Assembly (NCBI GenBank): GCA_965215275.1
Contig: OZ244044.1
Span: 1,093,561 to 1,157,560 of the forward strand
DNA: 64,000 nt
Source: Thermodesulfobacteriota bacterium
GTDB lineage: Bacteria; Desulfobacterota_D; UBA1144; Nemesobacterales; JAJCZQ01
Direction of reading: 5' to 3'
A program made the translations under genes and the position numbers. The notes beneath the pieces were generated by a model that saw only the letters and a program-made list of their open reading frames with translations, did not search any database and was not told the DNA's origin. Below, one piece after another: positions 4,824-64,000 of this stretch (position 1 is the stretch's first letter; every line of letters starts with the position of its first letter).

Positions 4824-5765
4824 ATGTCAAAGAAAGCACCTGGGAAATCATACAGGAAAGGGATATCGTTAGTAAAGTTATTCAGGAAATTCCCTTCTGA
4901 TGCTGTTGCAGAGGAATGGTTTGTAAAACAGAGGTGGGGAAAGGAACCCGTATGTCCGTATTGCGGGACAAGAAACGTTCAGACCGGGACTGGTCATAAG
5001 ACAATGCCGTACAGGTACAGGGAAAAAGGACGTTCGAAATGGTTCAGTGCAAGGAGCAGGACAGTTATGCAGTCTTCTAATATCAGGTATCAGGCTTGGG
5101 CAGTGGCAATATATCTTTTTGCCACGTCATTAAAGGGAGTATCAAGTATGAAACTGCATAGAGATCTGGATATTACGCATAGGTCAGCATGGCATTTATC
5201 GCATCGTATCAGAGAGGCGTGGAACAGAGAAGAACTGCAAGTGTTTACAGGCTCCGTGGAGGCAGATGAGACGTTTACAGGTGGAAAGGAGAGAAACAAG
5301 CATAACAACAGGCGTAGTCATACACGAGGACCTGGAGGGAAGTCCATTGTTGCAGGAATGAAGAACAGAGAGACAAACAGGGTAACAGCACAACCGGTTT
5401 CTGAACGTAGTAAAGAGGAAATACAGGGTTTTACAGTTAAGAACGCAGGTAGTGGAGTAAAAACATATACCGATGATCATAAAAGCTATACAGGGTTGCC
5501 TTATGAGCATGAGAGCGTGGATCATAGTGTAAGGGAGTACGTTAAAGAGCAGGCACATGTAAACGGAGTGGGATCGTTCCGGGCAATGTTAAAAAGAGGA
5601 TATACCGGCACGTACCACAGAATGAGTAAAAAGCATTTAAATCGTTATGTAAATGAGTTTTCGGGGAGGCATAATATAAGAAGACTGGACACGGAAGATC
5701 AGATGGGAACAACAGCAAGGGCAATGTATGGAAAGACCTTGCCTTATAAAGAACTGATAAGGTAA
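4824..5765 (+). CDS. ISXO2-like / IS1595-family DDE transposase
   Basis: 313 aa with an N-terminal Zn-finger (CPYCGT) and an ADETFTGGKERNKH motif, characteristic of ISXO2-like transposases. Confidence 0.85.
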   Translation: MSKKAPGKSYRKGISLVKLFRKFPSDAVAEEWFVKQRWGKEPVCPYCGTRNVQTGTGHKTMPYRYREKGRSKWFSARSRTVMQSSNIRYQAWAVAIYLFATSLKGVSSMKLHRDLDITHRSAWHLSHRIREAWNREELQVFTGSVEADETFTGGKERNKHNNRRSHTRGPGGKSIVAGMKNRETNRVTAQPVSERSKEEIQGFTVKNAGSGVKTYTDDHKSYTGLPYEHESVDHSVREYVKEQAHVNGVGSFRAMLKRGYTGTYHRMSKKHLNRYVNEFSGRHNIRRLDTEDQMGTTARAMYGKTLPYKELIR

Positions 5766-5817: not shown

Positions 5818-6006
5818 ATGACGAACAGGAAAAAAACAATAGAGATCTTGCCAGGCAGTTATGAACCGACAGAAGAAGAGAAAGAGCATCCGTTTTCTAT
5901 TGATACAACTCCGCAAAAGTCAGCAAAAGCTATCCTCCAGCCTGTCAACGTTAAAAAGAAGGATGTAAAGAAACACGTTGCTGAACGTTCAAAAAACAGG
6001 AAATGA
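5818..6006 (+). CDS. small Lys/Glu-rich passenger ORF inside the IS1595 element (hypothetical)
   Basis: 62-aa ORF between the transposase stop and IRR. No recognisable domain. Confidence 0.25.
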   Translation: MTNRKKTIEILPGSYEPTEEEKEHPFSIDTTPQKSAKAILQPVNVKKKDVKKHVAERSKNRK

Positions 6007-6103
6007 TCCAGGTTTCGTCACTATTGTATATAATTCCCATTTAATTTAACTGTCTCAAATACTTTTATTTTTGATATAACTTACTGAAATAATTTAGTTT
6101 TTA

Positions 6104-6625
6104 TTGACAAAATGGTTATTATATAATATACTTTTATACATACTAATAATGAAACTTTTTAACAGACTGAATAAAAAAGTCACTAAGTTTTTGTCAAAAA
6201 AAGTCCTATTCAAAAGGTTTATCTCTAAAAAAAGAGATAAAAAAGACATATGTCAATTAATCCCTAATATAATAAATGCTGATAATAATTGCGCTCTTAT
6301 TGCACTTCATCTTTTGTTTCCAAAAATTCCGGAAGATAAAATATTAGACGCATTTTACCATTGTTGCGAAAAGTGGCCAAATGAGGGAGTTACAAACAAA
6401 GAGTTTAATATTGCTCTTAAATTTTTAAACCTGGACAAAAAAGTTTGTTATCACGGAAATGAAACAATTGTTCAATTACTATTAGCACATAAAGATAGAG
6501 CTTTTATAAGTTTAGTACACGGACACTTTTTGGTTATTTCGTTCGGTAGAATTTTAGAGTTTTTCAGTTGTTATTGGACTAACTGTAAAGAAGCAAAAGT
6601 CTATTGTTATTGGGAAAAACTTTAG
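6104..6625 (+). CDS. hypothetical protein; predicted papain-fold Cys peptidase (deubiquitinase-like Cys-box and His-box)
   Basis: 173 aa. NNCALIALHLL resembles a USP/papain Cys-box. HGHFLVISF resembles the USP His-box GHY. Lies in an AT-rich islet. Assignment by eye only. Confidence 0.35.
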   Translation: MTKWLLYNILLYILIMKLFNRLNKKVTKFLSKKVLFKRFISKKRDKKDICQLIPNIINADNNCALIALHLLFPKIPEDKILDAFYHCCEKWPNEGVTNKEFNIALKFLNLDKKVCYHGNETIVQLLLAHKDRAFISLVHGHFLVISFGRILEFFSCYWTNCKEAKVYCYWEKL

Positions 6626-7287
6626 CAAGGGGCATAGTTTCTGTATTTTTTATGACATTTGCGAAACTCTTTAGACTCTGGATTTTGCAAATGATGTAAC
6701 AGCATCATAAATCCAACTGAAGTTGCCTCCATTATTATTGCTGTATATGAACCGTAATCGCCATAACCATCATCGCCGGCGTTTTCTAAACTTAGAGGCT
6801 TTGGGTTCCAAAAGCAGGTATATTCTGAAAAGTGTTTTTTGATACCAACACCAATAGAAAGCGTTTTAATGATTTCTCCTGCTCTGCCAACTTCATTGCA
6901 CAACTCGCCACAAGTAATACGAGCATCATTGGTATCTGGAACATTAATAACAATCTGAGAATCACTTACAGTATCCCTCGCCTTTATAGCTTCTGAAGGA
7001 ATGTCTGGAGTGTGTCTTTTCAGATGATGGGGTATGATCTTGATTTCAATTTCTGAGTTAATAAGGTTTGTTAATTTATCTTTTAAAACATAAACTTTAT
7101 ATTTACCAATATCAGTCCGTATGAAATTTCCTCTGTTTAGGTTGCTTATATCAACTTTATCCCCATCTATAAGAGCTAAATGTTTAGCCCCAGTCCTTAC
7201 TAACATTTCAGCAAATACACTTCCAACGGCACCGCAACCAACAATACAAAATTTGGGAACTATATAGGAAAGTTGACAAAATCCCAT
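6622..7287 (-). CDS. ThiF/MoeB/E1-like adenylyltransferase (minimal E1)
   Basis: 221 aa. Rossmann motif VGCGAVGS followed by DGDKVDISNLNRG, matching the E1 hallmark DxDxVxxSNLNRQ. No adjacent thiS/moaD. Confidence 0.7.
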   Translation of the reverse strand: MGFCQLSYIVPKFCIVGCGAVGSVFAEMLVRTGAKHLALIDGDKVDISNLNRGNFIRTDIGKYKVYVLKDKLTNLINSEIEIKIIPHHLKRHTPDIPSEAIKARDTVSDSQIVINVPDTNDARITCGELCNEVGRAGEIIKTLSIGVGIKKHFSEYTCFWNPKPLSLENAGDDGYGDYGSYTAIIMEATSVGFMMLLHHLQNPESKEFRKCHKKYRNYAPC

Positions 7288-7295
7288 AACTCCCT

Positions 7296-7481
7296 TTAAT
7301 CATTAACTTCTTTTATAAGAGGATTTCCTTTAGGATCTACTACTAATTTAAACCTTTTTTTCAGTTCTTCTTTGGTTGGTTTTTTAGGTCGTTTATGCGG
7401 GATCGAACCCATTTTTAACAACATCTTTGATGCTTTATCTATTGCTTGTTCTTTTTCTTTTTTTGCTTTTAATCTTTTCAT
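7296..7481 (-). CDS. small basic protein (61 aa, Lys-rich), hypothetical
   Basis: ORF immediately upstream of the E1-like gene on the same strand. Highly basic. No GG terminus. Confidence 0.3.
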   Translation of the reverse strand: MKRLKAKKEKEQAIDKASKMLLKMGSIPHKRPKKPTKEELKKRFKLVVDPKGNPLIKEVND

Positions 7482-7535
7482 TATAAAACAAATAACTATT
7501 AAATATGATCAAGACTCCTCCATCATATGTCATCA

Positions 7536-8481
7536 TTACTGTGTTAACTCTTCAAAGGTTATAGTTTTTCCTGCCATATTTCTAAAAAGTGCATCCAGTT
7601 GATCTTGCGTGTCTGTTTTTACATTACCTTCATTTAACCTGAACGAAAACTCATCTATATATTTCTTAAGATGTTTTTTATTCCAATTGTGATATACACC
7701 TTTGTATCCACCCTTTAATACTGCCCAGACACTTTCAACCCCGTTTGTAGAAGCCATCGTATTTACAAACTCTTTTGCCCAATGATCGACCGTCTTATGC
7801 TCAAATTCTCTATCTGATAAACCTCTGTATCCTCTATGCTCATCTGTGTATATAATGGAACCTTCTGCAATGTTCTCTTTTATCTCTCTTGAAAGAGTTT
7901 CACTCTCTCTGTTCCGGATCACTTTTGCTCTGGTTCTGCCTCCCTTCTCCCTCATACCTGATATACAGACCTTTCCTGCAACTCCTCTGCCTTTATTTCG
8001 TTTCTTGCTCCCGTGCTTGTTCTTCTCAAGTCCACCTATGTATGTCTCGTCTATCTCTACTTCTCCTTTCAATAATACTTCCATATTACTTCCACAAGCA
8101 AGTCGCAACCTATGCAGCATATACCAGGCTGTTGTCTGGGTTACTTCTAACTCCTTGCTCAACTGTAAACTGCTTATTCCCTTTCGGGAAGTCATAAGCA
8201 AATATCCTGCAAATATCCACTTCCGCATACTCAAGTGGAGTGCCTGTTAAAGCAGTAAAATAACTCCGGCATTCCTTACACCAATACCTGCCATATGGTT
8301 TCTTCTGTCGTGTTATTTTCTTGCTGCTTCCACACTTTGTGCAGTTTATTTTCTTTCCCCAGCGTAATCCCTCAAAATACTTAATTACAGATTCTTTTGC
8401 AGGATACTTTTCCATTAACCCAAATAAACTGACCGTCTTCACATGTCTTTTTTTCATACAATAAATATGATCTTCTATCAT
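7536..8481 (-). pseudogene. IS1595-family (ISXO2-like) transposase disrupted by a frameshift; a second, divergent IS copy
   Basis: The N-terminal Zn-finger part (8110-8481) and the DDE part with GEVEIDETYIGGLEKNKH (7536-8234) sit in different frames and overlap at 8110-8234. Homologous to the intact 4824-5765 transposase. Confidence 0.75.
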
Positions 8482-8569
8482 CTCTTGTCAACTCTTGTGT
8501 CAATATATCCCCTGTTTTGTCAACTTCCCTATATAGTTCCCTAAGAAAGGAAAGAGAAAGACGTTATAC

Positions 8570-8599
8570 TTGACATTCGTTCATAATACCTGGTAAAAT
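8570..8599 (+). promoter_or_regulatory. sigma70-type promoter (TTGACA, 18-nt spacer, TAAAAT) for subtilase-family paralog 1
   Basis: TTGACA at 8570-8575 and TAAAAT at 8594-8599. The same block is conserved upstream of paralogs 2 and 3. Confidence 0.6.
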
Positions 8600-8645
8600 A
8601 AAAGAGTTATGAAAAGTTCAAACATAAAAACACGTAGTTCCATTA

Positions 8646-8657
8646 CCCCCCCCCCCC
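8646..8657 (+). repeat. homopolymeric C12 tract in the 5' UTR of paralog 1
   Basis: 12 consecutive C at 8646-8657. Paralog 2 has C11 at the equivalent site. Confidence 0.9.
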
Positions 8658-8703
8658 GTGTATACCTGACCTTTCAGCCTGGTATAAATATTTTGTAAGA
8701 ACA

Positions 8704-11700
8704 ATGTTTAAGATAATCCCCCCCCCATCTAAGTTATTACTAACCTTAGTCTTTATTCTACTGAGTATCATGGTCATAGCTGCAAAAGGGCAGAGCAGCC
8801 TGGAAGAAACATTATCTGAATGCAGAGATATCAGTGCAGGTCTGGAAGATCCGTTATACGGATGTCAGTGGCATCTGAATAACACTGGACAGTTAAGTAT
8901 TTCCGGAAAGAGAATAACAGCAGGAGAAGATATTAACGCAGAGGGAGTATGGAACGAAGAGGTATATGGTACTGGAATTAACGTAGCAGTTGTAAGTAAT
9001 GGAATAGACCTTTCACATGAGGACCTTTCTGCTAAGGTCCGTTCGGAACTGAACTACAACTTTTCTGGAAAAGATAATTCAGACAGTTCAGAGTTAAGTG
9101 GTACACGAGCGGCAGGAGTAACGGCAGCGGCTGGATATAACGGACTGGGAACAAGAGGAGTTGCACCTGGTGCGAGTATATACAGTAATAAGTTAACAGG
9201 AGATCTCAGGGAATCAGACGCAATGGAAGCAGGGGAAGCAATGGTGCGTAATAAAGAAATAACTGCAGTATCCGTCAGCGACCGGGGATCTGAGGACGGA
9301 GTTTTTCTTCAGGGTGCTTCGGCTGAGTGGGAAGAGGGAGTGGAAGAGGGTATAAGGGAAGGGTTTTACGGCAGGGGAATATTTTACGTCCTGGGAGCAG
9401 GGGACGGACATGAGAGCGGAGATCAGGCTAATTTTTCTGAATATTCCAATTACTACGGGGTAACAGCGGTGTGTTCAACGGACGGTTCTGGAAAGAAGAG
9501 CTTGTTTTCAGAAGAGGGAGTGAATCTGTGGGTATGTGCGCCTGGTCCTGATATAGCGACCACTGATAGCGACGACGATCACGCCGTGACGTCCGGAACT
9601 GTCCTTTCAGTTTCACGGGTCGCAGGTGTGGCGGCACTGCTGAGAGAGGTAAACGAAGACCTGAGCTGGAGGGATATAAAGCTTATACTTGCGGGTTCGG
9701 CACGGCAGAACGACGTTCCTGACATTAGCTGGGAGACTGGAGCGGTAAAATACGGTTCCGACGTGGAAAGATACAGATACAGTTCGAAATACGGTTTTGG
9801 CGTGGTGGACGCGGAGGCGGCCGCAGAGCTTGCCGGAAGCTGGAAAGGAGTGGGAGAAATGAGGACCGTTACAGCTTCCTCGGATAATGAACTGACGATC
9901 CCTGATGGAGAAGGAGAGGCGGACGGGGTCCTTACCTCCAGACTTATGATTTCGGACCTGGAGGAAATATTTACGGAGTTCGTTGAGGTAGAACTCGTTC
10001 TCTCGTGTGACTGCCTGCAGGACCTCAATATACGGATAACCTCTCCTTCCGGGACAGTATCGGAACTTGTGCGGGAGTCTGCCAGTGAGTTTGTAAGGGG
10101 ATCTTCGAATGAAGAAAACGACTGCGTCAGTTACCTGGGGAAAAAACATCGTTTCGGTTCGGCAAGACACCTCGGGGAAGACCCTTCCGGAGAATGGACC
10201 CTTAAGATATATAATACTGCTTCCGGAGATGAAGAAGATACAGAAAATACCGTTACCCTGCACTCATGGAGCATCAGGGTATACGGGCACGGGAAGGAAG
10301 ATACTTTAACGGACTTTGGCGGGGAGATCACTGCCAAGGCTTTAACTTTGGGTAATGTTCCTGGTGGTAGGCTGACCTGGACGCAACATAAGCTGGTAAA
10401 CGCAAGGTTATTCGAGGCAGCCGGAGGCAGGCCGCCGTATACTTACAGTTTAGCTCCTTTACCTCCTGGATTGAATTTTAACGGAACCACCAGAATTATA
10501 AACGGGAGACCGACCGCTGCAGGTGACACCGACGTTCAGTATACGGCAAGAGACGCAAATAACGATACGGCACGGAGTGACTTCGTTATAAGGATAACGG
10601 CGAACGCCGCGCCGGTTTTTGGCAGCAAGACGGTTGCTGCTCAGGTGTACACGGCAAGGAAAGCAATAGAACCATTGGAACTTCCCGAGGCAACGGGAGG
10701 GGATGGAACCTTGACTTACAATATAAGTGGTAACGTCAGGGGTATAGGGTTGAACTTTAACCGTAACACAAGGATACTGAGCGGAATGCCCACCAGTGTT
10801 ACGCCTGGTATTACAGCCGTTTATACCGCCACTGACGCAGATGGAGATACTGCCGAGCTGAGGTTCAATATACGGGTAAGACATCAGAACGACATACCGA
10901 CCTTCGGCAGTCAGATGGTAGATGATCAGAATTGGGTTAACGGCAGTGCGGTAAGGCTAACGCTGCCTCGTGCAAGAAACGGGAATGGAACGTTAACCTA
11001 CGGTATAACCCCTGCTTTGCCTGATGGACTGGACTTTGATCCTGGTACCAGAGTGCTGAGCGGAACACCGACCGCTGCGGCACCTGAGAACACTTACACG
11101 TATACGGTAACGGACAGTGATAACGATATTCATGAAAGTGATTCTGACAGTCTGACCTTCAGGATAAGAATAAAAGCTGCAACTGAAGTCCCAAGTTTCG
11201 GCAGTCAGACGGTAGGTAATAAGATTTATACAGCAGGGGTTCAAATATCACCATTCACGTTACCTCTTGCAACGCAAGGAACTGGAATTACACTCAGGTT
11301 AACCCCTCGTTTACCTTCCGGATTGAATTTTAACCATGCTACCGGAGAGATAAGTGGAATACCGACCACTGCAACGTCTGAGACTGATTATACATGGAGA
11401 GCAACGGACAGAGACGGATATACGGCTGAGATAACGTTCAGTATAACGATAAGAGCAGCAGACACGGAACCGACCTTCGGCGGTGAGACGACGGATGATC
11501 AGGAATACGTGGCAGGAAGTCAGATAACGCCGGTAACGCTGCCAGTGGCAACGGGAGGAAATGCTCCGTTAGCCTACGGTATAACCCCTGATCTGCCTGC
11601 TGGACTGGACTTTGATGAAAACGCCCGAGTGCTGAGCGGAACACCTACTACTGCAACGAGTAAGAATACCTATACATATACTGTAACGGACGAAGATGGA

Positions 11701-12483
11701 GACACGGATGAAATTGAGTTCGGTATCACCGTGTCGGAGGACACAATGCCGACCTTCGACGGTGAGACGATAGAAGACAAGGTGACCGTTAACGGCGTTA
11801 CAGAAGTAATGGAAACGCTGCCTCTTGCAACAGGAGGGAACGGAACGCTGACTTACAGTTTAACTGATGCCGGTTCAAATGCTTTGAATTTATTTGCCGG
11901 ACTGGACTGGGATGACAACACCCGGGTGCTGAGCGGAACACCCAATATCGGTTCAGCGCTGCTTCATCTGCTTCCTCGAACCGAGACTTACACGTGGACG
12001 GTAACGGACGAAGATGGAGATACAGCAGAGATAACGTTCAGTATAGTAATAGAAGAAGACAGCATGCCGGAATTCAGTGTGACGACGATAGAAGATCAGG
12101 TGTACAGGGGGAGATCAATAATGTTGCCGGTAGCAACGGGAGGGAATGCACCGTTAGTATACAGTATAACGCCTCCCTTACCTCCTGTATTGAGATTGAA
12201 CGAAAACACCGGGGTAATAAGCGGGACGTCCGTCCGTGCGTCATCTGCTGCTACTTACAGGTATACGGTAACGGACAGGGACGGAGACATGAAAGAGTTG
12301 ACCTTCAGGTTCAGTGCAGCGGCTCCGCCACCGACAAGTAGTAATTCAGGCGGAGGTGGAGGATGTGCTGTATCAGATCAGAGCATCGCCATTTTTGATA
12401 TTCTCGGAGTAATGGCATGTCTGATACTTATACCCGTGTCTGTAATTATCAGAAGGAAAAGAAGATCTCAGATAAAGACTTAG
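8704..12483 (+). CDS. large secreted kexin/subtilisin-like (S8) domain protein. Includes a P-domain, about 7-8 He_PIG (putative Ig / cadherin-like) repeats, and a C-terminal Gly-run/Cys–TM–basic sorting signal. Catalytic triad apparently substituted (pseudoprotease).
   Basis: 1259 aa. Signal peptide MFKIIPPPSKLLLTLVFILLSIMVIAAKG. Subtilase motifs are degenerate: VAVVSNGID (Asp→Ser), SGTRAAG (aligned with HGTRCAG of furin, His→Ser), TSGTVLS (aligned with GTS, Ser→Val). P-domain-like ITSPSGTVSEL...GEWTLKIYN. Repeats LPxATGGNGTLTY...LPxGLxFDxxTRVLSGTPT...TYTVTDxDGDTAE. C-terminus GGGGGCAVS...LILIPVSVII-RRKRRSQIKT. Confidence 0.8.
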   Translation: MFKIIPPPSKLLLTLVFILLSIMVIAAKGQSSLEETLSECRDISAGLEDPLYGCQWHLNNTGQLSISGKRITAGEDINAEGVWNEEVYGTGINVAVVSNGIDLSHEDLSAKVRSELNYNFSGKDNSDSSELSGTRAAGVTAAAGYNGLGTRGVAPGASIYSNKLTGDLRESDAMEAGEAMVRNKEITAVSVSDRGSEDGVFLQGASAEWEEGVEEGIREGFYGRGIFYVLGAGDGHESGDQANFSEYSNYYGVTAVCSTDGSGKKSLFSEEGVNLWVCAPGPDIATTDSDDDHAVTSGTVLSVSRVAGVAALLREVNEDLSWRDIKLILAGSARQNDVPDISWETGAVKYGSDVERYRYSSKYGFGVVDAEAAAELAGSWKGVGEMRTVTASSDNELTIPDGEGEADGVLTSRLMISDLEEIFTEFVEVELVLSCDCLQDLNIRITSPSGTVSELVRESASEFVRGSSNEENDCVSYLGKKHRFGSARHLGEDPSGEWTLKIYNTASGDEEDTENTVTLHSWSIRVYGHGKEDTLTDFGGEITAKALTLGNVPGGRLTWTQHKLVNARLFEAAGGRPPYTYSLAPLPPGLNFNGTTRIINGRPTAAGDTDVQYTARDANNDTARSDFVIRITANAAPVFGSKTVAAQVYTARKAIEPLELPEATGGDGTLTYNISGNVRGIGLNFNRNTRILSGMPTSVTPGITAVYTATDADGDTAELRFNIRVRHQNDIPTFGSQMVDDQNWVNGSAVRLTLPRARNGNGTLTYGITPALPDGLDFDPGTRVLSGTPTAAAPENTYTYTVTDSDNDIHESDSDSLTFRIRIKAATEVPSFGSQTVGNKIYTAGVQISPFTLPLATQGTGITLRLTPRLPSGLNFNHATGEISGIPTTATSETDYTWRATDRDGYTAEITFSITIRAADTEPTFGGETTDDQEYVAGSQITPVTLPVATGGNAPLAYGITPDLPAGLDFDENARVLSGTPTTATSKNTYTYTVTDEDGDTDEIEFGITVSEDTMPTFDGETIEDKVTVNGVTEVMETLPLATGGNGTLTYSLTDAGSNALNLFAGLDWDDNTRVLSGTPNIGSALLHLLPRTETYTWTVTDEDGDTAEITFSIVIEEDSMPEFSVTTIEDQVYRGRSIMLPVATGGNAPLVYSITPPLPPVLRLNENTGVISGTSVRASSAATYRYTVTDRDGDMKELTFRFSAAAPPPTSSNSGGGGGCAVSDQSIAIFDILGVMACLILIPVSVIIRRKRRSQIKT
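8718..8726 (+). repeat. homopolymeric C9 tract inside codons 5-8 (PPP) of paralog 1
   Basis: ATG TTT AAG ATA ATC CCC CCC CCA; the downstream frame is in-phase (ON). Confidence 0.9.
10330..12300 (+). repeat. array of about 95-aa He_PIG/cadherin-like tandem protein repeats within paralog 1
   Basis: Recurrent motif LP(V/L)ATGGN(G/A)(T/P)LTYxITPxLPxGLxFDxxTRVLSGTPT...YTYTVTDxDGDTxE seen at least 7 times. Confidence 0.7.
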
Positions 12484-24761: not shown

Positions 24762-24829
24762 AAGGGGAAATACTCCCCACATCCTGATATCATTATCATT
24801 GTAAGAAAGGAAAGAGAAAGACATCACAC

Positions 24830-24858
24830 TTGACATCCGTTCATAATACGAGTAAAAT
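24830..24858 (+). promoter_or_regulatory. sigma70-type promoter (TTGACA, 17-nt spacer, TAAAAT) for paralog 2
   Basis: Sequence block from about 24800 to 25090 is about 85-90% identical to 8540-8830. Confidence 0.6.
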
Positions 24859-24904
24859 ATCAATGTTATGAAAAATCCAAACATAAAAACACGTAGTTCC
24901 ATTA

Positions 24905-24915
24905 CCCCCCCCCCC
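24905..24915 (+). repeat. homopolymeric C11 tract in the 5' UTR of paralog 2
   Basis: 11 consecutive C. Confidence 0.9.
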
Positions 24916-24976
24916 GTGTATACCTGAACTTTCAGTCTGGTATAAGTATTTTGTAAGAACAATGTTTAAGATAATA

Positions 24977-24985
24977 CCCCCCCCC
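24977..24985 (+). repeat. homopolymeric C9 tract at codons 6-8 of paralog 2; the frame is broken here
   Basis: ATG TTT AAG ATA ATA CCC CCC CCC ATC TAA. There is one extra nucleotide relative to paralog 1 before the tract, and the homologous frame resumes at 24975. Confidence 0.85.
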
Positions 24986-26559
24986 ATCTAAGTCATTACT
25001 AACGTTAGTCTTATTTCTTCTGATTATTATGGTCATAGCTGCAAAAGGGCAGAGCAGTCTGGAAGAAACATTATCTGAATGCAGAGGTATGAGTTCAGAC
25101 ACGGAAGATCCGTTATACGGATGTCAGTGGCATCTGAAAAACACGGGGCAGTTTGGTTTTTCCGGAAAGAGAATAACAGCAGGAGAAGATATAAACATAG
25201 AGGGAGTGTGGAACGAAGACGTATACGGTACCGGAATTAACATAGCAATAGTAAGTAACGGCATTGACCTTTCACATGAGGACCTTTCTGCTAAGGTCCG
25301 TTCCGGACTGAACTATGATCTGTCTGACAGTTCATCTTTTAGTGGAACACGAGCGGCAGGTGTAATAGCAGCAACTGGATATAACGGACTGGGAGTAAGA
25401 GGAACAGCACCTGGTGCGAGTATATACAGTTACAGGTTATCCGGTGATCTCAGTGAAGCGGACGCGGTGGTCCGTAATAAGGAAATAACTGCAGTATTGG
25501 TTAACGGCCGGGGATATGAGGAAGGAGCTTTTTTTCAGGAGGCTTTGGCTGAGTGGGAAGAAGGAGTGGAACTTGGAATAAGAGAAGGGTTTTATGGTAA
25601 AGGTGTGTTTTACGTCCGGGGAGCAGGGGACGGTCATGAGAATAACGATCAGGCTAATTTTTCTGAATATTCAAACTATTACGGAGTAACGGCTGTGTGT
25701 TCAACGGACGGTTCTGGAAAGAAGAGTTTATTTTCAGAAGAGGGAGTAAATCTATGGGTATGTGCACCTGGTTCTGATATTGTGACCACAGATAATAACG
25801 ACGGCTACGTTGTAACTTCCGGAACATTTCTATCAGCTTCACAGGTTGGAGGAGTGGCAGCACTGCTGAGAGAGATAAATGGACAGCTGAGCTGGAGGGA
25901 TATAAAGCTTATACTTGCGGGTTCAGCACGGCAGAACGATTTTTTTGATATGAGCTGGGAGACTGGAGCTGTTAAATACGGTTCTGATACGGAAAGATAT
26001 AAATATAATCCTAAGTATGGTTTTGGCGTGGTAGACGCAGAAGCAGCTGCAGAACTTGCAAAAAGCTGGAAAGGCGTTGGAGAGATGAGGACCATTACAG
26101 CTTCTTCAGATAATGAACTGACAATTCCTGATGGAGAAGGAGAAGCAGACGGGGTCCTTGTTTCCAGACTTATGATCCCGGACCTGGAGGAAATATTTAC
26201 GGAATTCGTTGAGGTAGAACTTGTTTTCTCTCATGACCGCTTACAGGACCTTGATATAAAAATAACCTCTCCTTCCGGGACAGTATCTGAACTTGTAAGG
26301 GAGTTTTCAGGGGAAGCGGAAGACGCTGATATCAGTTACCTGAGAAGAACACATCGTTTCGGGTCGGCAAAGCACCTCGGAGAAGACCCTTCCGGAGAAT
26401 GAATCCTTAAAATATCCGATACTGCTTCCGGAGATGAAGAAGCAGAAGATGGAGAAGAAGTGGGGACCTTACACTCATGGAGCATTAAGGTATACGGGAA
26501 TTTTTATCAGGGACATGGCAGTGAGATCACTACTAAAGCTATAAGTCTGCCTTTTATTG

Positions 26560-28800
26560 CTAATAAGGAATACACACAAAATACTTCAGTAGAAGACACG
26601 TATCCTGAAGCAACGGGAGATAATCCGCCTTATACTTATAGATTTGTTCGCGGTACATTACCAGATGGACTAAGCTTTGATCCTGACACCCGGGTGCTGA
26701 GCGGAACACCAACTACTGTAGGTAGGAAAACTGCTCAATATTTAGCAGAAGACGCAAGTGGAGATATAGCAAGGAGGACCTTCTTTATAACTATAACAGC
26801 AGGACCGCCAACCTTTTCAGGAGCAACGGTCCCTGAACAGATATGGACGGAAGGGGTAAGGATACCAACATTACGTTTTCCTAATGCAACGGGAGGTAAC
26901 GGAACTTTAACATACTTTTTAAGTCCTGCGCAGCCAGTTGGTATCAGCAGACAGGACAACAGGTTATTCGGAACACCTACGGAACCTCAAAGAAGATCTC
27001 TTTATACATGGACAGTCAGAGACAAAGATAATGATGAGGATATTATTGAGTTCTATATTACTGTAAGAGAGAACGTCCCTACCTTCGGAGGTCAGACCAT
27101 ACCTCAGCAGAATTATATAGTAGGCAGAACAATACAAAGATTAGTATTTCCTCGTGCAACGGGAGAGGAACCGTTAACTTACAATTTAGAAGGAGGTCCG
27201 ACTAATTTACCAGGTGGATTGAACTTAGTAAGTAATCCAACAAGTATAATAGGAACACCAACTACAACGGCGGACATTAATTACAGATGGACAGTTACGG
27301 ACAAAGATGGAGATAAGACAGAACTTCCGTTCAGGATGAAGATAAGGTCTGCATCTGAAGTACCGGACTTCGGCAGTGAGACGGTAGAAGATCAGGTGTG
27401 GGGTAACGGCAGAGCAGTAACGTTAACTCTGCCTCAGGCAACTGGAGGGAATGGAACTTTAAATTACAGTTTAAGCGGTGTTATACCAAATGGACTTACT
27501 TTTAACCAAAACACCAGAACGTTAAGTGGAACGCTCAACATTGTTGATACAAGTATATTACCTGTAACTGGAACTTATACCTGGAAGGTAACTGACTCTG
27601 ACTCAGATGATGACGGTGATTCTGACAGTATTACCTTCTCTATTACTATAGAAACTGATTCAGAGCCGAGCTTCGGAGGTCAGACCATCCCAAATCAGAC
27701 ATATATTGAAAGGACAACCTTCGGTCTTCCAGTAACGCTGCCTGAAGCAGTTACAAATACAGGGAATGGGACTTTAATTTACAGTTTAAACCGTAGTTTA
27801 CCTAGTGGTTTGAGCTTTGATCCTGCTACCAGAGTGATAAGTGGAACTCCAACTCATAGGCAACCTATTTTTTCAACTTATACATATAGGGTAAGAGATA
27901 ATGATGGAGATACGGCTAATCTGAGTTTCCGCCTGCAAATAATCGGTAACACCCGGCCAAGCTTTCATAATACGATAACAGATAAGGTGTATTATACGTT
28001 TACAGCAGTAACGGAAACGTTACCTGAGGCAGCACAAAATAATAATCCACCTTCAACTTACAGTTTAACTCCTGCATTACCTGATGGACTGATCTTTACC
28101 CCTGCTACCAGAGAGATAACAGGAACACCAACTGCTGCAATGTCTGAGACTGATTACACGTATACGGTTGCTGATCTAAATGGAGATACGGACGAGTTAA
28201 CATTCAGTATCACTGTATTGGCAGTAGCAGACACGGAACCGACCTTCGGCAGTGAAACTATAGATAACAAGGTATATATAAACTACGGAGAAGCAGTAAC
28301 GGAAACACTGCCTGAAGCAACGTCAGGGAATGCACCATTAACTTACAGTTTAAAGAGGGACCATTTTGGTAGTTTCACTACTGCTTTATTTAAGGGATTG
28401 ACATTTACTGCAAACACCAGAGAGTTAAGCGGAACACCCAATCTTGATATTCATCCAAGTCTATTTCCTGTAACTGCTACTCATACATATAAAGTAAGAG
28501 ACAATGATGGAGATACAGCAGAGATAATGTTCAGTATAACAATAGAAGAAGACAGCGAACCGGACTTCAGCGGTGTGACAATACCAGATCGTGTGTACAC
28601 GGGGAGAACAATAGAGCTGCCAGAGGCAGCGGGAGGGAATTTACCAGTTACTTACAGTATAACACCTGATCTGCCAGCTGGATTGAGATTTAACGAAGTA
28701 ACGCGGGAAATAAGTGGGACACCCAGGAGTGCATCAACAAGAACTTACACGTATACGGTAACGGACAGCAATGGAGATACGGATGATGCGACTTTCATGC
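26560..28800 (+). repeat. He_PIG/cadherin-like tandem repeat array of paralog 2; repeat number and sequence diverge from paralog 1
   Basis: At least 8 copies of LPxATGGNGTL(T/N)Y...GL(S/T)FxxxTRxxSGTP...YT(Y/W)xVxDxDGDT. Confidence 0.7.
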
Positions 28801-29237
28801 TCAGTGTAGAGGTTACTTCTACTCCAGGACCAACACCACCACGAGGACCAAGAACGTCAGGTACTGATTCAGGCGGAGGTGGAGGAGGATGTGCTGTATC
28901 AGAGCAGAGCAGCGTTGATGAAGATATTCTCGGAGTAATGACATGTCTGATACTTATACCTGTGTCAGTAACGATAAGAAGAAAGAGAAGAGCTCAGGTA
29001 AAGACTTAGCAATGCACTTCTTTCAAAGGTATTTCTGAGAGAATTGGAGTCTGGTTTTCTTTTATAAGTTCGTTGAGGAGAACGGGTGTATTACCGTGTA
29101 TTGAGCTATAGTATGTAATTCCCTTTATATAACTGTCAGTTATATAAGTTATTTAATTTTTCTTATGTCTGGTTATCAAGATAATTCCGAAGCTATCTAT
29201 ACAGATTTGCAGGACAGAAAAACTTATTACTTGGCTG

Positions 29238-44630: not shown

Positions 44631-44704
44631 GGGCCCATAGCTCAGTTGGTCAGAGCAGCGGACTCATAATCCGTTGGTCCCAGGTTCGAGTCCTGGTGGG
44701 CCCA
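44631..44704 (+). tRNA. tRNA-Met (anticodon CAT; elongator type, or tRNA-Ile2 if lysidinylated)
   Basis: 74-nt cloverleaf: acceptor GGGCCCA/TGGGCCC, D-arm GCTC/GAGC, anticodon loop CTCATAA, T-loop TTCGAGT. The anticodon stem has GGA rather than GGG, so it is not an initiator tRNA. CCA is not encoded. Confidence 0.85.
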
Positions 44705-45966: not shown

Positions 45967-46333
45967 GGCGAGTTAGCTAAGCGGTCGCTTGCTCAGGCAA
46001 GAGGAAAGTCCGAACTTCAAAGGGTAGTGTGCTGGTTAATGGCCAGGTACCGTGAGGTAACGGAAAGTGCCTCAGAAAAGATACCGCCTATGCATAATAT
46101 ATGCAGGTAAGGGTGAAATGGCAGTGTAAGAGACTACCGCTCTGATCGGTGACGATCATTGGCAAGGCAAACCCCGCACGAAGAAAGGCAAAATAGAGAA
46201 GCACCTGAAACTTTCGTTTCAGACTGGGCGACCCGTCCAATGCTTCCGGGTGTGCCGCTAAAGATATTCAGTAATGAATATTTTAGATGAATGACCGCTC
46301 ACGACAGAATTCGGCTTACAGGTTAACTCGCTG
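45967..46333 (+). ncRNA. rnpB: RNase P RNA (bacterial type A)
   Basis: P4 strand GAGGAAAGTCCG. AACGGAAAGTGCCTCAGAAA...ACCGCC. TAAGGGTGAAATGGCAGTGTAAGAGACTACCGC. 3' end GATGAATGACCGCTCACGACAGAATTCGGCTTA nearly identical to E. coli M1 RNA. P1 helix GCGAGTTA (45968-45975) pairs with TAACTCGC (46324-46331). Confidence 0.9.
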
Positions 46334-46369
46334 CTAAATTTCTCTAATACGTTTCAGGAGAACAACAGA

Positions 46370-62767: not shown

Positions 62768-62911
62768 ACTTTTCCACCGTTGTAGTGCCAAGACAAGGAA
62801 TCGTGGTAGTTTGATTTATGGAGATTATCTGCTTAATTACCAAAAAACTTACATCGCTTCCCTGCACTGACTTTAAAGGTTTGAACAGATTGTTTAGCAT
62901 AAAAATTATTC

Positions 62912-62941
62912 TTGACATTCATTAATAATACAAAGTAAAAT
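62912..62941 (+). promoter_or_regulatory. sigma70-type promoter (TTGACA, 18-nt spacer, TAAAAT) for paralog 3, same block as paralogs 1 and 2
   Basis: cttgacattcattaataatacaaagtaaaat, compared with cttgacattcgttcataatacctggtaaaat. Confidence 0.55.
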
Positions 62942-62951
62942 AGAAAAAGTC

Positions 62952-64000
62952 ATGAACATCCTGTTTAGAGTAACACCCCCCCCCATAAGTTATTAATTCC
63001 CTTTTTCTTTCTTCTGTGCTTTGTAAACGTTGGTGCATATGGTCAGACCAGCGTTGATAACTGCGACTCCAGTGCAACGACAGAAGCTACATTGACAGTA
63101 GCCGGAAGTACACGTAGTGGAAGTTTAGCTGCCGGTGCTGATCCGCATTACTTTCAGATAGACGTGAATGAAAGATTGATCGTGGCTATAATAGTAACCT
63201 TCCCCTTCTCCAATGATCAGGGATACAGTTTACAGGTATGTGACAGCAATAATTATCTGATAGCAAGTGCTGCTGGAGTTCGTATTGAGGATGAGGGTAT
63301 AGTGAAGGTCACTATAGAAACCCGCCTCAGACCTGGAACGTACTATATAGTAGTGGGAAGCCGTGTTGCCACGTCCTACAATGTTGCAGTTGTGGTATCT
63401 GATCTTAATACTGTATTTGATGATGACTGCCCGGAAAGTAGTACTACAAATTATCCAAACGACACCTTATACGGTTGTCAGTGGTATCTGAAACGTCAGG
63501 CGGGTGAGTTTATATTAGGTGAAAAGACAATACCCGATACGGAATATGCAGACATAAACATAGAAGAGGTCTGGGATGATAACGTATTTGGAGCTGAGAT
63601 TAACGTAGCGGTGGTAGATCATGGCATGGACACAGATCATGAGGACCTTGCTGATAACGTGGATACTACACTTTCTCATGATTACTCAGGAAGCGGTGAT
63701 CTGTACAGTCCTTTCAGTGGTCGCGGCACACGTGTGGCAGGCATTATAGCAGCAGTGGGTGATAACAGCCTTGGAGTAAGAGGTGTAGCACCTCAGGCAA
63801 GCATCTACAGTTATAATTTAGCTGATAACTTCAGTGATACTAATGCAAAGGACGCCATGGTCCGTAATAAGGATATAACGGCTGTATCTGTCAACAACTG
63901 GGGACCGAAGGACCTGCCGGTTCTTACAGAGGCTTCATCAGAGTGGGAAGAAGGAGTGGAAACTGGTATAAGAGAAGGATTTGGTGGTAAAGGAGTATTT
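62952..64000 (+). pseudogene. paralog 3 of the kexin-like surface protein family (5' part only, continues beyond the window). Currently frameshifted at the C9 tract. Encodes a signal peptide, an extra N-terminal about 140-aa β-sandwich-like domain, then the subtilase-like domain (Asp retained in VVDHGMD, His→Arg in GRGTRVAG).
   Basis: Frame 62984-64000 has no stop and translates HKLLIPFFFLLCFVNVGAYGQTSVDNCD...YGCQWYLKRQ...VAVVDHGMDTDHEDL...SGRGTRVAGIIAAVGDNSLGVRGVAPQASIYSY...MVRNKDITAVSVNNWG...EWEEGVETGIREGFGGKGVF, homologous to paralogs 1 and 2. Confidence 0.75.
62976..62984 (+). repeat. homopolymeric C9 tract at codons 9-11 of paralog 3; out of phase
   Basis: ATG(62952) AAC ATC CTG TTT AGA GTA ACA CCC CCC CCC ATA AGT TAT TAA. 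The long open frame begins at 62984 (+1 relative). Confidence 0.85.

Follow-up and report, generated by a model that had tools for sequence, protein, structure and literature searches.

Three paralogous genes for predicted kexin-like surface proteins, located in a 64,000-nucleotide (nt) stretch from a Thermodesulfobacteriota bacterium (GenBank assembly GCA_965215275.1, contig OZ244044.1, positions 1,093,561 to 1,157,560 of the forward strand; hereafter referred to as the window), each carry a run of nine cytosines a few codons after the start codon, and two of them carry a second, longer poly-C tract upstream (the leader tract). The tracts lie at the 5′ ends of the genes, their length decides the reading frame, the arrangement recurs throughout the family, and tract length and coding state differ among paralogs and related genomes. 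The best explanation of this pattern, and probably the correct one judging from the sequences, is slipped-strand phase variation, in which changes of tract length in the DNA would switch individual genes on and off. Here we describe the tracts and their frame effects, compare them with those of related genes and weigh phase variation against other accounts of the pattern.

A scan of the 64 kb for homopolymers of at least 7 nt found 22 runs of A, 17 of T, none of G and five of C. All five C tracts lie on the plus strand, which is the coding strand, less than 100 nt from the starts of the three paralogs (Table 1), and their coordinates are exactly those given by the sequence-only reading that had proposed a switch here. 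C or G runs of at least 9 nt averaged 0.145, with a maximum of 2, in 200 shuffles, against the five observed. The tracts are not a by-product of codon usage, because Pro-Pro elsewhere in the window is never written CCC-CCC (0 of 24 dipeptides); CCC makes up 23.5% of the proline codons. Contingency loci are recognised by G/C runs of about 7–8 nt or more within an open reading frame (ORF) or its expression signals, and all three paralogs possess such a run.

Table 1 Features of the three paralogs in the window and tract states of related copies (locations of related copies are given as loci)
Feature	Location	Strand	Description	Basis
Paralog 1	8704..12483	+	1259 aa	Pfam, PDB matches
Paralog 1 promoter	8570..8599	+	sigma-70-type: TTGACA, 18-nt spacer, TAAAAT, TG extension	11/12 matches in scan
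Paralog 1 upstream ORF	8609..8698	+	from the family's ancestral ATG, 9 nt past the −10 box, through C12; TAA 8696-8698
Paralog 1 leader tract	8646-8657	+	C12	sequence, homopolymer scan
Paralog 1 coding tract	8718-8726	+	C9, codons 5-8 (I-P-P-P), signal-peptide n-region, in frame
Paralog 2	24962..29009	+	frameshift at tract and in-frame TGA	translation
Paralog 2 promoter motif	24829..24858	+		pattern match
Paralog 2 upstream ORF	24868..24927	+	19 codons at C11, stop 35 nt before ATG 24962	simulation
Paralog 2 leader tract	24905-24915	+	C11	sequence, homopolymer scan, alignment
Paralog 2 coding tract	24977-24985	+	C9, out of frame
Paralog 3	62952..64000	+	cut by window end	= P0028
Paralog 3 promoter motif	62911..62941	+		pattern match
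Paralog 3 coding tract	62976-62984	+	C9, out of frame
P0017	L081		ATA-C8-GTCTAAG, in frame
P0026	L083		ATA-C9-ATAAG, out of frame, one C short
P0250	L100		ATA-C9-ATAAG, out of frame, one C short
P0018	L101		ATA-C9-ATAAG, out of frame, one C short
P0124 / P0010	L097 / L098		ATA-C9-ACCATAAG, out of frame, one C short

Frame effects were read from translations and from simulated tract lengths. From its ATG at 8704, paralog 1 reads MFKIIPPPSKLLL... through C9 into the full-length ORF; it is open (ON) at C6, C9 or C12, and other tract lengths lead to a peptide of 8–13 residues (OFF). Paralog 3 is one C short of being in frame and otherwise intact. Its ATG at 62952 reads MNILFRVTPPPISY and meets the TAA at 62994–62996 after 14 codons, whereas at C7, C10 or C13 it would read MNILFRVTPPPHKLLIPFFFLLCFVNVGAYGQ..., a typical signal peptide, in a frame that stays open to the window end. 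The corresponding database protein, P0028, which agrees with the portion of paralog 3 inside the window, was called from an internal methionine and extends over 785 residues to the C-terminal sorting signal. Paralog 2 reads MFKIIPPPI from its ATG at 24962, followed by a TAA at 24989–24991, and its ON frame needs C8 or C11. Repeat number thus alters the frame in silico, with non-ON lengths yielding peptides of 8–15 residues. These translations bear out the sequence-only reading on four counts: the in-frame state of paralog 1 at C9, the C9-encoded Pro-Pro-Pro shortly after the ATG in the signal-peptide region of all three paralogs, the 1-nt shift with a stop after nine codons in paralog 2, and the need for C10 or C7 in paralog 3.

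That reading had described paralog 2 as shifted by one nucleotide at its tract, and the alignment shows where the shift lies. Paralogs 1 and 2 both have C9, and the frame differs by an extra A on the 5′ side (ATAAT-C9 in paralog 1, ATAATA-C9 in paralog 2), not by the number of C. Furthermore, paralog 2 has a TGA at 26400–26402 where paralog 1 has a tryptophan codon (GE*ILKI versus GEWTLKI), and it is annotated as two fragments split by this TGA, P0004 (457 residues) and an 849-residue ORF. With C8 or C11 its product would still be only 479–480 residues long, ending ahead of most of the P-domain and losing the repeats and the anchor. This in-frame TGA makes paralog 2 a pseudogene for every length of the tract. 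Of the proposed arrangement of one ON and two OFF copies, the ON state of paralog 1 and the OFF state of paralog 3 stand, whereas paralog 2 is dead.

It could be asked whether the run itself is conserved, or the Pro-Pro-Pro peptide that it encodes, which might matter through stalling dependent on elongation factor P (EF-P) or as a feature of the signal peptide. PPP is indeed kept in all tract-bearing N-termini. It is written in CCC codons only, however, while other Pro-Pro dipeptides avoid CCC-CCC, and in most copies it stands in a frame that terminates at once. Moreover, the peptide encoded across the leader tract has no evident role, and PPP is missing from the signal peptides of one subfamily, whose catalytic triad is intact. 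We consider it very improbable that the peptide is the conserved element.

The three paralogs belong to a large family. A protein search of the source contig (1,990,023 bp) found about 27 family ORFs, P0004 and P0028 among them, and about 28 were counted in all; paralog 1 is missing from the protein list, which may be because the list holds no protein of at least 1000 residues. Five copies are ON in the source genome, namely four of these ORFs and paralog 1, and start with M..(I/V)IPPP..K and a hydrophobic core. Three family ORFs have N-termini without a tract. At least 17 were called from an internal methionine and have no signal peptide, and they stay open over 570–950 residues to the C-terminal GGGGC, transmembrane (TM) helix and RRK. 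Because these copies are open as far as the C-terminal signal, their lesions are concentrated in the first ~100 nt of genes of 2–3 kb, a clustering at the 5′ end that would not be expected from random decay.

This clustering bears on the possibility that the OFF copies are ordinary pseudogenes of a recently expanded, decaying family, with the poly-C runs acting as fragile indel sites and no reversible switching. The extra nonsense codon of paralog 2 agrees with decay, as do P0001, P0002, P0023, P0027, P0031 and P0256, which start well inside the S8 domain or have no C-terminal signal, and the recurrence of OFF states across assemblies. Decay does not account well for the 17 or more copies open from just past the tract to the C-terminal signal, nor for tracts that stay pure CCC codons in diverged paralogs. 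The ratio of nonsynonymous to synonymous substitution (dN/dS) is 0.32–0.56 for ON/OFF and OFF/OFF pairs, below 0.6 throughout, which also argues against it. In addition, conservation of promoter, ATG and tract exceeds that of the gene bodies: this module is 82–96% identical among paralogs, OFF copies included, even where the bodies are 68–70% identical. P0124 is 68–70% identical to the other members in its body and 86–91% in its 5′ module (L081, L083, L097, L100 and L101 compared with window 62912–63020), and paralog 3 is 93.6% identical to P0017 in its body and 83.5% in its 5′ module (window 62912–63020 against L081). The 5′ modules are thus mosaic relative to the bodies, which points to an exchange of 5′ cassettes by recombination or gene conversion. 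The sequence-only reading had named additional lesions throughout the OFF copies, together with uniform tract lengths in deep read data, as grounds for giving up its proposal; the nonsense codon of paralog 2 answers in part to this for that one copy. We regard decay of the family as unlikely.

The family is also carried by a related metagenome-assembled genome (MAG; GCA_964348445.1, with L083, L097 and L100) and by the ENA metagenome assemblies ERZ21848999 and ERZ21849000 (11–15x), which we take as short-read because their contigs have SPAdes-style names (NODE_..cov_..). OFF copies in these related assemblies have intact ORFs of 640–804 residues, and the SPAdes-named contigs hold both states, C8 ON (L081) and C9 OFF (L098 and L101). 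One ortholog pair differs in state between genomes: P0123 is ON in the source genome (MKQVMNILFRIIPPPFPSKSV...), whereas P0124/P0010, its companions in a 90% cluster, are OFF in two further assemblies. A further length difference concerns a tract in the middle of a triad-intact gene, where C10 at L083 19371–19380, between the S8 and P-domains, splits the gene into P0033 (540 residues, ending ..IIIPSPPPIT) and a 956-residue ORF. The source ortholog P0256 reads ..IIIPSPPPPPDHLDG... (S-P5-D) in frame; its tract, inferred from the protein, would be 17 nt, and the 7-nt difference restores the frame. A homolog search with the ON-type N-terminus (186 residues) returned a single match and no in-frame length variants.

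These comparisons bear on two further alternatives. The frameshifts could be homopolymer errors of sequencing or assembly, all copies being truly in frame. C9 to C12 runs are error-prone on long-read platforms, and the related MAG accessions look, by their style, like those of long-read symbiont-genome projects. The OFF state at C9 is nevertheless found in SPAdes-named contigs as well, beside an in-frame C8 copy; every A8 or T8 run falls within a housekeeping ORF that is intact; and the shift in paralog 2 comes from an extra A rather than from the C count. Errors of this kind are a scarcely credible source of the whole pattern.

Alternatively, C9 could be a fixed recoding site, at which a −1 ribosomal shift by tRNA-Pro slippage, or the addition of a C by RNA polymerase, would secure low constitutive expression. 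The best argument for recoding is that five paralogs in at least three assemblies are all C9 and all call for the same correction of −1 (or +1 nt); a C run also permits slippage in any frame, with the zero-frame stop no more than 4–5 codons away. The 80 nt past the tract fold no better than shuffles, however (z = −0.57 and +0.47), unlike a programmed −1 frameshift site. Paralog 2 needs the opposite shift, in-frame C8 and C9 copies exist, and the C12/C11 leader tract would be left unexplained. Transcriptome-wide, homopolymer insertions were found in A/T runs in every case and in none of the G/C runs (PMC5574713), which speaks against transcriptional slippage at these sites. A fixed recoding site strikes us as distinctly improbable.

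Several observations weigh against slipped-strand phase variation itself. Tract lengths were read here from assembled sequences. Paralog 2 carries a second lesion, the nonsense codon. P0123 and P0124 differ beside the tract too, and not in tract length alone, and P0017, P0247 and P0248 are all ON across assemblies. P0018 and P0249 were called from the same internal methionine, with the OFF state seen at the DNA level for P0018 only; likewise, P0020 and P0250 share an internal-methionine call, with OFF shown for P0250 only. Five different paralogs, moreover, all have precisely C9 and would each need one more C to be ON. Such uniformity is unexpected for freely drifting tracts and would have to come from biased contraction, from gene conversion of the 5′ module or from some other mechanism. 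On balance, the core of the sequence-only reading, in which poly-C tracts in the signal-peptide region control a surface-protein family with few copies ON and most OFF, agrees with all the comparative evidence gathered here. Its comparison with classic contingency loci holds in part, and what sustains it is the family-wide 5′ pattern, the coexistence of ON and OFF states and the differences between orthologs.

The genes share their upstream signals. The promoter consensus of the family in the window is TTGACA, a 17–18-nt spacer and TAAAAT before every paralog, and the window has three copies of the 30-nt motif CTTGACATYC..GTAAAAT, one ahead of each paralog, whereas shuffles have none. In a metagenome scan the same motif matched 10 loci, all unrelated chance matches. 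A purine-rich block, TAAGAAAGGAAAGAGAAAGAC, lies just 5′ of the −35 box of paralogs 1 and 2 (8541–8563 and 24803–24823) and is absent from paralog 3; it may serve as an UP element or be bound by a regulator.

An alignment of the 5′ regions of the three paralogs and three relatives places ATG 8609 in register with the start codons of paralog 3 and of the L081, L083 and L097 genes. This ancestral ATG, at 8609 in paralog 1 and 24868 in paralog 2, lies 9–10 nt past the −10 box. In paralogs 1 and 2 only, it is followed by an insertion of ~86 nt that holds the C12 or C11 tract, one C apart in otherwise near-identical leaders, and that ends in a new ATG (8704 or 24962). The C12 and C11 runs had been correctly recognised, but the label of 5′ untranslated region does not fit them, because they lie within an insertion after the ancestral start codon. 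The upstream ORF (uORF) at 8609–8698 exists as proposed, with 29 codons plus the stop, and the gap between its stop and ATG 8704 is 5 nt and not 6 nt. No obvious Shine–Dalgarno sequence precedes ATG 8704.

In simulations of paralog 1, C11 in the leader moves the uORF stop to 8667–8669, and at C10 or C13 the uORF and the main ORF become one frame of 1290–1291 residues. The leader tract would therefore determine where the uORF ends: 5 nt before the main ATG at C12, where coupling would be possible, or 35 nt upstream at C11, with fusion to the main ORF at C10 and C13. From this geometry, which fits, we infer that translational coupling through the C12 tract is plausible. No known RNA element was found in the leaders with Rfam, and the leaders, like the sequences past the coding tracts, fold no better than shuffles. 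The sole Rfam and ARAGORN matches in the window are a class A RNase P RNA (45969–46334, 285 bits) and a tRNA-Met(CAT) (44631–44704). A role for C12 in promoter spacing, of the Bordetella fim type, was rejected, because the one good promoter match is located upstream of the tract.

Under slipped-strand phase variation, each family member would be transcribed from its own strong sigma-70 promoter and would carry a tract of 8–10 C at about codons 6–9. The mRNA would be almost leaderless, because the ATG lies so close to the −10 box. Slippage during replication would add or drop a C. One frame class would then yield the full secreted surface protein, composed of a kexin-like binding module, the He_PIG repeats and an anchor signal at the C-terminus, and the other two would end translation within 8–14 codons. 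Changes of 3 nt should be harmless, because the tract lies in the cleaved signal peptide and only the number of prolines would alter. The paralogs would switch independently, and a population would show shifting subsets of about 25 antigenically distinct proteins. We infer that slippage is the cause and that it is reversible, and the same holds for its rates, for coupling and for the purpose, which may be to evade a host, phages or grazers. A more elaborate scheme, to which we would give only an outside chance, treats the two serial tracts of paralogs 1 and 2 as a combinatorial translational device, in which the leader length would select termination-reinitiation coupling (C12), uncoupling (C11) or an N-terminally extended fusion (C10/C13), and, separately, the uniform C9 as a held state, maintained by gene conversion of 5′ cassettes or read through by low-level tRNA-Pro slippage, such that about 25 variants would be sampled without commitment in the DNA.

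Paralog 1 consists of a signal peptide, a Peptidase_S8 domain (PF00082, 5.5e-20), a P-domain (PF01483, 1.7e-12) and seven He_PIG repeats, as identified with Pfam. Its best PDB matches are kexin and furin, with E values of 1e-30 to 1e-32 over the catalytic and P-domains, and the order of S8 followed by P-domain is that of the kexin subfamily. The sequence-only reading had spoken of a new protein family, but these domains (S8/kexin-like, P-domain and He_PIG) are already known. The active site is another matter. In an alignment with kexin 2id4, the catalytic Asp of paralog 1 is replaced by Ser, the His by a gap or Ser, the Ser by Val and the oxyanion Asn by Asp. Because all catalytic residues are replaced, paralog 1 is a pseudo-protease.

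The family alignment (window 8990–9000 and 63560–63700) reveals three subfamilies by catalytic residues. That of paralogs 1 and 2 has lost Asp, His, Ser and Asn; that of paralog 3 has Arg for His and keeps Asp and Ser; and the third has Asp, His and Ser intact, with ordinary signal peptides that lack PPP and no 5′ poly-C tract. The complete set of Asp, His, Ser and oxyanion Asn is not retained in the tract-bearing copies. The paralogs thus resemble the kexin and furin convertases in combining an S8B domain with a P-domain, and differ from them in the replaced catalytic residues. To judge from these replacements, the catalytically degenerate copies are very probably binding modules rather than proteases.

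At its C-terminus (12340–12483), paralog 1 has the motif GGGGGC, about 15 residues, a TM helix and RRKRR, and the arrangement GGGGGC, ~15 residues, TM and RRK(I/R)RS is nearly invariant across the family alignment. The combination of a signal peptide with this C-terminal signal points to the cell surface. Searched against the NCBIfam CTERM models, the C-terminus scored below every cutoff, the best match being Synerg-CTERM (E 0.023, 14.8 bits, cutoff 22.5); the JDVT-CTERM model gave 10.2 bits against a cutoff of 27. A candidate sorting enzyme, a 211-residue CPBP/Rce1-like protease, is encoded directly upstream of P0026 (L083 9043–9678). It matches the myxosortase models MrtP (1.7e-18) and Mrt core (8.7e-18) below their curated cutoffs, and no homolog of it was found in the window. 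The C-terminus shares with the MYXO-, Synerg- and JDVT-CTERM signals a Gly-rich motif containing an invariant Cys, followed by a TM helix and a basic cluster, and the gene beside P0026 in L083 recalls their myxosortases. It differs in the ~15 residues between Cys and TM helix and in falling below the cutoff of each CTERM model, as the protease falls below those of the Mrt models. On this evidence, the GGGGGC-type C-terminus may represent an undescribed class of sorting signal.

The neighbours of the paralogs include housekeeping genes (purH, nadA and genes for a GHMP kinase, an NAD kinase and a release factor). Paralog 1 is separated from a TolC-like gene by a TnpB-family gene and two IS1595-type transposases (1459–2913, 4824–5765 and 7536–8234), and this block, rich in insertion sequences (IS), includes a low-GC stretch at 6001–8000. 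Window 7252–7674 is 97.9% identical to L082 958–1380, a repeat common to both genomes. In relatives with 80–86% PurH identity, no family gene was found between purH and the TolC-like gene, and the contig of the relative with 86% identity ends at purH. Because these relatives lack the whole block, paralog 1 belongs to a lineage-specific, IS-rich insertion. The host lineage is uncultured and, by its PurH (63–66% identity to named relatives), appears Deltaproteobacteria-like.

More distant homologs, 38–44% identical, in MAGs of Dehalococcoidia and Chloroflexota have no 5′ poly-C tracts; in one Dehalococcoidia MAG, a C13 run (L079 65–77) precedes a distant S8 homolog (41%) by 2.4 kb. Just upstream of P0018, an unrelated secreted protein of 172 residues, without a Pfam or NCBIfam match, has an in-frame C9 (PPP) in its signal peptide (L101 9256–9264). 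The poly-C device would on this account reach beyond the kexin-like family. A further C9 on the plus strand (L081 6188–6196), which is G9 in the sense of the gene, lies in frame (MGGGIL) inside a gene for a 587-residue PF03601 membrane protein.

The proposed mechanism is a textbook one; what is new is the host lineage, the scale of about 28 copies in 2 Mb, the type of protein and the tandem arrangement of leader and coding tracts. In Neisseria, 4–12 opa paralogs carry CTCTT repeats in their signal-peptide coding region. The Opa system and the present family have in common a surface multigene family with individual promoters, a repeat in the cleaved signal peptide, few ON and mostly OFF copies, and independent switching, which is proposed for the present family. 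The repeat here is a mononucleotide C run rather than a pentamer, the products are kexin-like/He_PIG proteins of ~600–1260 residues rather than eight-stranded β-barrels, and the copy number is ~28 in a 2-Mb genome rather than 4–12. Homopolymeric G/C contingency genes are found in Neisseria meningitidis, Campylobacter jejuni and Helicobacter pylori, and pilC has a poly-G tract in its signal-peptide region. As in those species, G/C runs of at least 8 nt stand at the 5′ ends of genes for surface structures, are otherwise depleted and set ON and OFF states by frameshift. Those species are host-restricted pathogens with measured switching rates, whereas the present genes belong to an uncultured Deltaproteobacteria-like lineage.

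In Bordetella pertussis, the fim promoters have a poly-C tract between −35 and −10. The leader tracts share with it a position outside the main ORF from which poly-C could grade expression; C12 and C11, however, lie downstream of the predicted promoter, within a uORF, and would act on translation and not on promoter spacing. A single-gene parallel is the sialidase gene nanH3 of Gardnerella piotii, in which a poly-C tract of 8–14 nt, ~100 nt from the start, varies within cultures by clone sequencing; out-of-frame lengths give short peptides, and the annotation loses the signal peptide (bioRxiv 10.1101/2020.09.16.300947). Both cases combine poly-C at the signal-peptide region with a surface protein that has a C-terminal TM helix, and both show the same annotation artefact. 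nanH3 is a single gene with its tract after the signal peptide, whereas here dozens of paralogs, read from assemblies, have the tract inside it. A published example of homopolymeric G/C contingency is the N. meningitidis phasome (PMC5084427).

Gene callers systematically truncate these genes and strip their signal peptides, and the family is for that reason mis-annotated in public databases. The catalytically dead kexin-like domain and the unclassified, Cys-containing C-terminal signal are each of interest on their own. The nearest family homologs occur in MAGs whose isolate names, going by the names only, resemble those of sponge-metagenome bins; literature searches on this organism, on its accessions and on phase variation in sponge symbionts found nothing. 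If the tracts switch, the surface of this organism would be under strong fluctuating selection, whether from a host, phages or grazers. To our knowledge, nearly all contingency loci driven by homopolymers have been described in host-restricted pathogens. If phase variation holds for this family, stochastic surface variation would be a wider ecological strategy than the literature on pathogens suggests.

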